A stretch of 25,404 nucleotides of DNA from a virus (lineage: Duplodnaviria; Heunggongvirae; Uroviricota; Caudoviricetes): IMG/VR virus record IMGVR_UViG_2534681674_000010. One strand, 5' to 3'. Within the stretch, counting starts at the first letter, position 1. The number at the start of each line of letters is the position of its first letter. The notes below the pieces were generated by a model, which was not told where the DNA came from, made no database searches, and saw only the letters and a program-made list of their open reading frames with translations. Position numbers and translations under genes: made by a program. Positions 21,183 through 22,204 of this stretch are shown here, one piece after another.

Positions 21183-21188
21183 TGACCA

Positions 21189-21224
21189 GTTTTGCAGAGG
21201 GGTTTTGCAGAGGTTTTGCAGAGA
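21189..21224. repeat. three tandem copies of GTTTTGCAGAG(G); candidate integrase arm-type sites
   Basis: Read directly just after int stop; a related TTTTGCAGAAGG occurs at about 21466. Confidence 0.4.
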
Positions 21225-21230
21225 AAATTA

Positions 21231-21353
21231 AAAACGATATCCTGCGGAGAACATAAACACCCACGGATCCAGTCGTACCGAGTCTTTCACGGTAGTAACA
21301 CCAGATTTATACTTAGCCGTGGTATCGATATCCATGTACCACACTGGTAGGTT
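21231..21353 (-). other. promoterless 3' fragment of an ompW-like outer-membrane protein gene; inferred attP core/arm
   Basis: 41 sense codons NLPVWYMDIDTTAKYKSGVTTVKDSVRLDPWVFMFSAGYRF-stop, preceded by in-frame stop and AT-rich DNA; C-terminus resembles recalled E. coli OmpW. Confidence 0.5.
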
Positions 21354-22204
21354 TCAAAAAACACAATAACCAATTGTATTTGAAGCAAAAAACAAGACTT
21401 TGAGATGCTTTTTTGTACCTTTTTTTTATGTTTTTAACTGCCTGATTTTATTGAAATCTTTTTTAGTTTTGCAGAAGGAATTTTTTACTTGATTGTAACT
21501 TTTTCGTTTTTTTTGGGGCTAATTGACGCGCAATGCTGGGCGGGGAGCGCACAGCCAAAAAACCCGAAATTGACCGCTAATTACTGCCAATCATCATCGC
21601 TCTGATTGAGCGTAAATCATTCAGGTTATTCAGTTCTTCCTTCTGCTCTCGCTGACGTCAATAAATCCCATCATTGCGATCAACCTCATCCTTAACCATT
21701 GATGCGAGCAGTTCTTCCAGTTTCTGCGCTGACAGCTTTACCTGGTGATCTTCAGCATCTTCCCGGGCTATTTGGTTCGCGCAGTGGCTGATTTTGCTGA
21801 CATCACCACAGGGGGCAGACGGACCATTGAACCAGGGCCTCCGGAACAAATAAGGGCAAAAATAACAACCACTATCGAAAGCTCACAAACCAGCCGCAGC
21901 ACATTCTTGCATACAACGTGCTGCGGCATAACCCCAATGATTACTCCATATAACGTGGGGAACATCGGCTTCGAATAGTGCCATGAACTGGCAGGTATCG
22001 AGGCAGCGCCATTTCCGGTGGCGGCGATCGTGAACAGGACTCTGTTGCCCGCATGCCGGGCATATTAGTAGTGTATTTTTAACGCACCCAACAACAACGG
22101 TGGCAGGACCAGCCCTTTATCAAGAAAAAGTGATTCAACCTGCTACGTGACGGGCAGGTTGAGAATGTACGCATATAGCTATTTTTCATTCATGAATATA
22201 GCAC

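Follow-up and report, generated by a model that had tools for sequence, protein, structure and literature searches.

The DNA analysed here is a stretch of 25,404 nucleotides from a tailed phage of the Caudoviricetes (IMG/VR record IMGVR_UViG_2534681674_000010), referred to in its full length as the window. It carries an excisionase gene and a lambda-type integrase gene, followed by a hairpin, three tandem repeats and, on the opposite strand, a copy of the 3' end of the Escherichia coli gene ompW that runs into AT-rich phage DNA. No tRNA genes were found in the window, and the site is therefore not a tRNA-type att site. Partial matches of the window to other genomes reach, at best, 98.8-99.9% identity over parts of its length. 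The features on which the analysis is based are the following.

19827-20075, plus strand: excisionase gene (xis), an 82-aa ORF with a match to Pfam PF07825 Exc (E 1.3e-7)
20053-21182, plus strand: lambda-type tyrosine integrase gene (int), frameshifted, read as ORFs 20053-21108 and 21069-21182
21167-21193, no strand: perfect 12-bp inverted repeat with a 3-nt loop, 100% complementary, spanning the int stop codon
21189-21223, plus strand: P' arm with three tandem candidate arm-type Int-binding sites, exact copies of the motif GTTTTGCAGAG
21226-21346, minus strand: 121-bp segment homologous to the ompW 3' end, 83% identical to K-12 ompW (the published PPompW att, alias attB-in-PP_3)
21228-21353, minus strand: promoterless replacement OmpW C-terminus of 41 sense codons and a stop, from the ORF reading
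21319-21346, no strand: 28-bp block identical in attP, attB, attL and attR, from four-way alignments
21347-21485, no strand: P arm, AT-rich phage DNA beyond the core, identical to the flank of the attR of strain SS17
21466-21476, plus strand: P-arm copy of the repeat motif with one mismatch, GTTTTGCAGAA, from a motif search

The excisionase gene is annotated as excisionase in strain EC4115 and as xisE in GenBank LC567822. The int gene, with its stop codon at 21180-21182, is interrupted in the window. Alignment with the intact 1131-nt allele of EC4115 shows that one C is missing from a C-run at ~21028, and the resulting frameshift falls upstream of the HxxR and Tyr motifs, leaving no intact catalytic integrase beside the site of the window. 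The frameshift may reflect genuine inactivation or an error of sequencing; elsewhere, in EC4115 and at the attL loci described below, the gene is intact. The intact EC4115 protein (376 aa) matches the Pfam families Arm-DNA-bind_1 (PF09003, 7e-22) and Phage_integrase (PF00589, 8e-16), together with PF22022 at 3.8e-5, the 24.3 bits of this last match being slightly below the 27-bit Pfam cutoff. Over residues 14-375 it aligns with the lambda Int structures 5j0n, 1z1b and 1z1g at E 1e-55, and the TGQR, KTG, FHExRS, LGH and Tyr motifs are in register with those of lambda Int. Judged from these comparisons, the integrase is a full-length homologue of lambda Int, including the arm-binding domain.

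The earlier note on this DNA had recognised 41 opposite-strand sense codons following an in-frame stop and AT-rich DNA, had named ompW as their apparent source, and had suggested aligning the fragment with E. coli ompW and defining a block of identity. The reading frame is as described, with sense codons at 21231-21353 on the minus strand (NLPVWYMDIDTTAKYKSGVTTVKDSVRLDPWVFMFSAGYRF) between an in-frame TGA at 21354-21356 and the TAA at 21228-21230. The identification as ompW proved right as well: in a blastn comparison the final 121 nt of the K-12 ompW region pair with 21226-21346 (103/124 identities, E 1e-27), and the two are 83% identical over the 121 nt. The encoded peptide ends in ...DSVRLDPWVFMFSAGYRF, and K-12 OmpW in ...SVWYMDIDTTANYKLGGAQQHDSVRLDPWVFMFSAGYRF. 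The part derived from ompW comprises only the last 38 codons (from VWYMD), and the ORF list contains a 38-aa ORF at 21228-21344. The alignment falls into three parts, being conserved near the stop, diverged in the middle and perfect over the 28 bp of 21319-21346, after which the homology ends abruptly. The block of identity sought is thus this 28-bp segment.

Both recombination products expected of such a site exist in nature. A predicted attL, in which positions 20700-21346 of the window were joined to the 5' part of K-12 ompW, is found unbroken in 1715 of 5426 complete E. coli genomes, with 93.6-99.6% identity among the matches listed, and the annotation at these matches reads "integrase" and "outer membrane protein OmpW". 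Four attL loci of differing identity display the order exo-xis-int(1131 nt)-ompW(639 nt, not a pseudogene)-yciC. The ompW gene in attL, with 639 nt and 212 aa, has the K-12 length and is completed by the phage codons. The reciprocal attR, in which yciE and the native ompW 3' fragment are joined to the right flank of the window (kinase, IS1 and tail-fibre genes), is present in O157:H7 strain SS17 and in EC4115, and also in an O8:H28 strain whose P arm differs. The four sites form a textbook quartet: attL follows the window up to 21346 and ompW beyond it, and attR first follows native ompW and then, past 21347, the window. The integration into the 3' end of a protein gene, with supply of a replacement C-terminus, that the earlier note had deduced from the window is therefore seen in full-length ompW at attL and in the matching attR. 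In the window itself the 121 bp continue into the P arm and not into ompW, and hence the prophage is not located in ompW here. The idea that the fragment is a dead relic was ruled out, as every attL examined, across genera, preserves both the reading frame and the length of the rebuilt ompW.

The position of the crossover can be narrowed down from the same alignments. All differences between the phage and native sequences lie within 21226-21318 and the flanks change over at 21346/21347, which places strand exchange in the 28-bp block. The exchange probably takes place in the right-hand part of the block, at ~21339-21347, and here we rely on weaker hints in the sequences. A G/C polymorphism at 21342 tracks the host background in attL of the strains S3 and O8, with G in three unoccupied ompW alleles; the O8 lysogen has G in attL and C in attR at this position; and rlmC of E. 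albertii adjoins the same phage end at ...CTGCC/AGTGTGG. A search of the core for symmetry gave only a 9-nt near-palindrome at 21324-21335 and no clear inverted core-type pair.

Prophages of this kind have been described before. PPompW is a lambda-like prophage of STEC and EPEC located in ompW, with a 121-bp attL/R (Nakamura et al. 2021, PLoS Pathog, PMC8112680; GenBank LC567818-LC567841), and its attP was confirmed in the same work by sequencing PCR products of excised circles (PMC8112680). The segment 20900-21346 of the window, comprising the int 3' end and the att sequence, is 98.9% identical to eleven LC5678xx PPompW records, and in LC567822 the coordinates of the repeat_region labelled "duplication due to insertion of PPompW", next to intE/xisE, coincide with 21226-21346. 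We consider it highly probable that positions 21167-21485 of the window make up the whole attP (P'-core-P) of a lambdoid phage of PPompW type, in its unrecombined state.

A different meaning has been attached to the same 121 bp. The name attB-in-PP_3, standing for a potential attB, was given to just such a 121-bp sequence lying downstream of int in prophages clustered at mlrA and ydfJ (PMC8112680), and the closest chromosomal match to the window has its site in a two-prophage cluster at mlrA. From this one could read the segment as an attB-like landing pad within a prophage, an ompW-derived decoy for further PPompW-type phages by which clusters are built. We regard this as very unlikely, given that the authors report no integration into attB-in-PP_3 observed (PMC8112680), that the same arrangement occurs in the stand-alone phage record CP025907.1, and that the site in EC4115 is explained by the entry of a whole circular genome through 3.3 kb of homology (see below). 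Furthermore, both flanks are the arms found in the attL and attR of lysogens, beside the cognate int, so that the 121 bp form part of P'OP and do not represent a bare core. The segment agrees with attB-in-PP_3 in its 121 bp and in its place downstream of int in a clustered prophage; however, the label means a potential attB, whereas the flanks here make up the complete attP of the adjacent integrase. The attP and landing-pad readings are not exclusive, and attP x attP recombination could take place.

The attP of the window is unrecombined since it occupies a point at which the int end of the phage genome(s) adjoins the tail end with no ompW present. A stretch of 601 nt surrounding the site is 100% identical in EC4115, TR01 and four other genomes, and the exact arrangement over at least 80% of these 601 nt is restricted to 17 of the 5426 genomes. 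EC4115, the closest chromosomal match, has the site away from ompW, inside a two-prophage cluster between btsS and mlrA, and this strain retains a PPompW prophage at ompW, adjoining another prophage. Nucleotide comparison reveals one complete, circularly permuted PPompW copy in the mlrA cluster, at 99.7-99.8% identity, and the two matched segments overlap by 3.3 kb (tRNA, DUF6645, DUF1378, DUF826 and the start of the holin gene), a stretch present twice in the cluster. The simplest reading of a permuted whole copy bounded by 3.3 kb of duplicated homology is that a circular phage genome entered the resident mlrA prophage by homologous recombination, leaving attP untouched. The outer junction of the cluster (btsS, DinI, tail fibre) is found in 284 genomes and is far commoner than the intact site. 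The 96-bp attB-in-PP_2 was also considered as the EC4115 junction and gave only a 56-nt match of 78.6% between 21870-21925 and the far end of the left prophage; it was set aside for EC4115 because the 3.3 kb of duplicated homology explain the cluster better, the strain analysed in the paper being FRIK944.

The same intact attP lies mid-way in CP025907.1, at 98.7% identity. A human commensal strain has it too, flanked by the int end of a lambdoid genome on one side and by the tail end on the other, and in SS17 tandem prophages at ompW meet at a version of the site whose P arm differs. The copy in the window probably stands at a prophage-prophage junction, though it may instead belong to an episomal phage genome. 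As the adjacent int is frameshifted, this copy would be usable only with an integrase from another prophage and may be inert otherwise.

In lambda, attP has three adjacent arm-type sites on the int-proximal P' arm, and from what is known of lambda, arm-type sites are expected for a lambda-type Int with an arm domain. The earlier note had pointed to three tandem repeats downstream of int within an attP-like interval at 21183-21360. The repeats are exact copies of GTTTTGCAGAG on the plus strand, at 21189-21199, 21202-21212 and 21213-21223, with start-to-start distances of 13 and 11 nt. As part of the phage arm that stays in attL they fall within the recombining region, and they were found in all attL loci examined. 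The motif has four matches in the window against 0.52 expected, a number reached in 0 of 100 shuffles. The fourth is the one-mismatch copy GTTTTGCAGAA on the P arm, at 21466-21476, and it lies beyond the interval of the note, whose attP-like content stood and whose right end did not, the functional site probably running on to ~21485. Allowing up to 2 mismatches, no more copies were found in the att region, with only this one on the P arm, and the window-wide counts were at chance level.

The arrangement is kept over a considerable evolutionary distance. Five relatives were compared (Kluyvera georgiana, a Kluyvera MAG, Raoultella scottii, Enterobacter bugandensis and an Enterobacteriaceae genome), whose integrases are 59-75% identical per domain (~65%). 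Beside these integrases GTTTTGCAGRR is present three times with the 13/11 spacing kept, except that in Raoultella one of the three sites is GTTTTGCTGGG. In four of the five loci a full-length ompW ends immediately before the repeats, which adjoin its stop on the 3' side; the fifth has no ompW downstream. In two of those four ~1.5 kb are inserted between int and the repeats, and repeats and hairpin stay with the ompW end. The DNA between repeats and core diverges in the relatives, with motif and spacing kept. On the other side, the fourth motif keeps a distance of 120 nt to the identity edge and of 277 nt to repeat 1 in CP025907.1 and in three P-arm lineages, namely that of the window and the SS17 attR, that of the SS17 tandem junction and that of an O8:H28 Stx2a/SubAB phage. 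These lineages are mutually homologous only from the core to ~21480-21485, a short way beyond the fourth motif. The window, P arm included, lacks the published 21-bp attB-in-PP_1 at up to 3 mismatches, this sequence being present only in another P-arm lineage (SS17 L006).

The arm-binding domain of Int, the conservation across genera and the fixed fourth copy on the opposite arm make the repeats candidate arm-type sites of Int. Such sites, distinct from the core, would be present on both arms, three on P' and one on P. From the comparison of repeats and hairpin in the relatives, and of the P arm in its three lineages, we infer site limits of ~21167-21485. It is very improbable that the repeats are instead part of the int/ompW terminator region, or bound by Xis or a host factor, with the ompW fragment alone defining the site, since this reading can appeal to the way in which repeat 1 overlaps the perfect hairpin of the int stop in its 3' half but runs against the recurrence of the motif on the opposite arm at a fixed 120 nt in three diverged P-arm lineages, the lambda arm-binding domain of the integrase, the preservation of motif and spacing at ~65% integrase identity while the repeat-to-core DNA diverges, and the established precedent of lambda attP with its three adjacent P' sites.

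The hairpin itself is a candidate two-way terminator, which could serve both int and the rebuilt ompW. As ompW-strand RNA, 21167-21193 folds at -17 kcal/mol (z -5.4) and is then followed by U6. A simple terminator scan of 20900-21900 made no call, for this hairpin or any other; it missed the hairpin because the A/T extension of the stem uses up the T-run, and the folding supports it. Promoter-like matches in a scan of the same 20900-21900 were at chance level only. In K. georgiana and E. bugandensis, where int is 1.5 kb off, the hairpin stays beside the repeats.

With the site read as attP, we propose that Int would use its N-terminal domain to bind the arm-type sites of the GTTTTGCAGAG motif, of which the P' arm next to int has three and the P arm a single one, and its other domains to bind a core within 21319-21346, a block identical to the ompW codons S-V-W-Y-M-D-I-D-T. 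Strand exchange with chromosomal ompW would then place the phage between codon ~174 and the remainder of the gene, and the 93 nt of phage DNA between the core and the ompW stop (21228-21318) would replace the last 31 codons. In this mechanism attL would receive a full-length chimeric ompW, closed by the phage-supplied hairpin at the int stop, and the native ompW 3' end would remain as a dead fragment in attR.

The site may be compared with that of lambda, with which it shares an Int homologous over its full length, an Exc-family Xis encoded upstream, and an int gene beside a P' arm with three repeats and at least one P-arm copy. Its estimated size of ~320 bp is of the same order as that of lambda attP, which has ~240 bp. 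Unlike in lambda, however, the core lies inside a protein-coding gene and phage and host share 121 bp of homology (83%) instead of a 15-bp common core; the arm motif is GTTTTGCAGAG and not the lambda consensus; and only one P-arm copy was found, with no strict IHF consensus. A search for the latter in its strict form, WATCAANNNNTTR, gave 0 matches in the whole window. In a further departure from lambda, the replacement coding segment intervenes and sets the P' repeats ~95-155 nt away from the core.

The PPompW prophages are closer relatives, agreeing with the window in the int 3' end and att segment (98.9% identity) with the 121-bp att beside int, in the ompW target and in the EEL/tail-fibre end across the site. 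Their records split the site into attL and attR at ompW, whereas the window has both arms contiguous and a frameshifted int. As to the principle of gene repair, phage 21 and e14 integrate into the 3' part of the protein gene icd and carry a diverged duplicate of its 3' end that keeps the ORF length (Wang et al. 1997, as given in PMC3603311). Likewise the phage-borne 3' end described here, from 21346 to just past the stop at 21228-21230, restores a full-length ORF, that of ompW; target gene and att sequence are different. The gene ompW is among the most occupied hotspots (Bobay et al.), and the first report of integration into it, as cited by PMC3603311, is that of Creuzburg et al. 2011.

The phages concerned are a common and already described lambda-like family of E. 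coli that insert at the end of ompW with a spare gene end, and the present result is a correct re-discovery of a known system. Its mechanism is well grounded apart from the binding of Int to the repeats and the exact cleavage positions, which, like the terminator function of the hairpin, we infer. The site itself adds little, the ompW hotspot being recognised and the 121-bp att and the PPompW attP having been published in 2021. What is added here is the arm-site architecture, the inferred site limits, the interpretation of attB-in-PP_3 as an attP and an account of how the EC4115 copy arose, by homologous recombination. The PPompW study makes no mention of arm-type sites or of a change in the OmpW C-terminus (PMC8112680), and the arm-type sites of these phages seem to be previously undescribed. 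For the annotation of EHEC prophage clusters it may be useful that attB-in-PP_3 is structurally a full attP belonging to the neighbouring integrase, with limits placed at ~21167-21485 and four candidate arm-type sites. The unrecombined attP of EC4115 would mark a whole PPompW genome in the mlrA prophage, acquired via homologous recombination and not by site-specific prophage-in-prophage integration.

The repair of ompW is not silent at the protein level. The phage and native C-termini differ at 7 amino acids, all of which fall in a ~10-residue stretch between the last two beta-strands, and the flanking strands are unchanged. The stretch reads ANYKLGGAQQHDS in the native protein and AKYKSGVTTVKDS in that encoded by the phage, with ASYKFNGTPVKDS and ANYKFNGTPVKDA in other phage alleles. 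By the standard topology of 8-stranded outer-membrane barrels, we take it to be the last extracellular loop. OmpW is the receptor of colicin S4 (PMC2649078) and, in Serratia, of at least one T4-like phage (PMC10132071). Integration might swap the surface-loop allele of OmpW and so amount to more than neutral gene repair, although from the sequences we think this unlikely, because relaxed constraint on the loop explains the same pattern more simply. In any case ompW stays full-length after integration with its last loop changed, a point occasionally overlooked where the gene is listed as prophage-disrupted. Given the role of OmpW as a receptor for colicin and phage, a phage-converted OmpW of changed sensitivity to colicins or phages may be present in about one third of sequenced E. 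coli, and, if the swap is true, a receptor loop would have been converted in about a third of E. coli genomes.

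The ompW gene keeps its full 639-nt length in all four of the attL loci examined, where the int end and the phage-borne ompW end are joined to the ompW 5' part. The wording of section 7 of PMC3603311 could be read as describing a disruption of ompW by prophage integration. The unoccupied ompW of E. coli AVS0973 (locus L018) is a divergent allele of 654 nt in which the last loop is five codons longer, and thus native ompW alleles also vary in this loop.

The association of the integrase with the three tandem repeats extends to other genera. In Enterobacteriaceae bacterium MGYG-HGUT-00110 (L015, 3631-3940 in the coordinates of that locus) a 64% identical integrase is accompanied by the same three tandem repeats; these are followed not by ompW sequence but by an opposite-strand ORF of 74 aa. 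Analysis of Kluyvera georgiana (L012, 3628-5150) and Enterobacter bugandensis (L016, 3574-5150) reveals ~1.5 kb of unrelated DNA between the integrase gene and the hairpin and three repeats. In both loci ompW is full-length, and the hairpin and repeats still directly adjoin its stop codon.

The following features of the window lie around the site or within int:

17318-19762, 814-aa 'exonuclease' ORF, upstream of xis
20053-21108 and 21069-21182, the two ORFs of the split int
22205-22588, NleH-like protein kinase ORF
22887-23583, IS1

The int gene (20053-21182) contains at 21020-21035 a run of C residues that is one C shorter than in EC4115 (CACCCCACCC to CACCCACCC). The missing C shifts the frame upstream of the HxxR and catalytic Tyr motifs, and consequently int is split into two ORFs; either the gene is truly inactivated, or the missing C may be a sequencing error in the homopolymer. 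The kinase ORF encodes 127 aa in the window versus 196 aa in EC4115 and SS17, and ~65 nt that these two genomes contain are missing near 22280. The IS1 copy (insA/insB ORFs) is placed just downstream of the kinase, before the tail-fibre genes. In the 'exonuclease', an Exonuclease VIII N-terminal region (PF06630) precedes an Rv2179c-like 3'-5' exoribonuclease domain (PF16473) at the C terminus.

In EC4115 (L001/L003/L004, 2.89-2.985 Mb, and L023, 1.737-1.783 Mb) the PPompW genome is present twice: circularly permuted inside the mlrA prophage, where it is bounded by 3.3 kb of duplicated homology, and at ompW. The EC4115 and TW14359 records differ in length by 43.9 kb, approximately one PPompW genome. 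At the SS17 tandem junction, which belongs to the other P-arm lineage, the published 21-bp attB-in-PP_1, the site of a yecE-like Stx2a phage (PMC8112680), is located ~300 nt from the 121-bp ompW segment (L006, 13013-13033); this site was not found in the P arm of the window.

The ompW-resident phage of E. coli O8:H28 BMH-17-0027 (L025, 10100-50000) encodes a subtilase (SubAB-like) toxin operon in addition to stx2a, and the annotation of its genes is that of contractile-tail proteins. Its int/att region is 96.7% identical at the DNA level, and its identity to ompW is ~6 nt (ACATGT) longer than in the window.

In Escherichia albertii NBRC 107761 (L011, 3631-4042) a 99% identical integrase, the three repeats and the 121-bp segment are all present, and the segment is joined not to ompW but to rlmC (ybjF), beside ybjO and potI. 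The junction creates a chimeric 121-aa ORF in which RlmC residues are followed by the 38-aa OmpW end, and it looks like a secondary-site integration disrupting rlmC.
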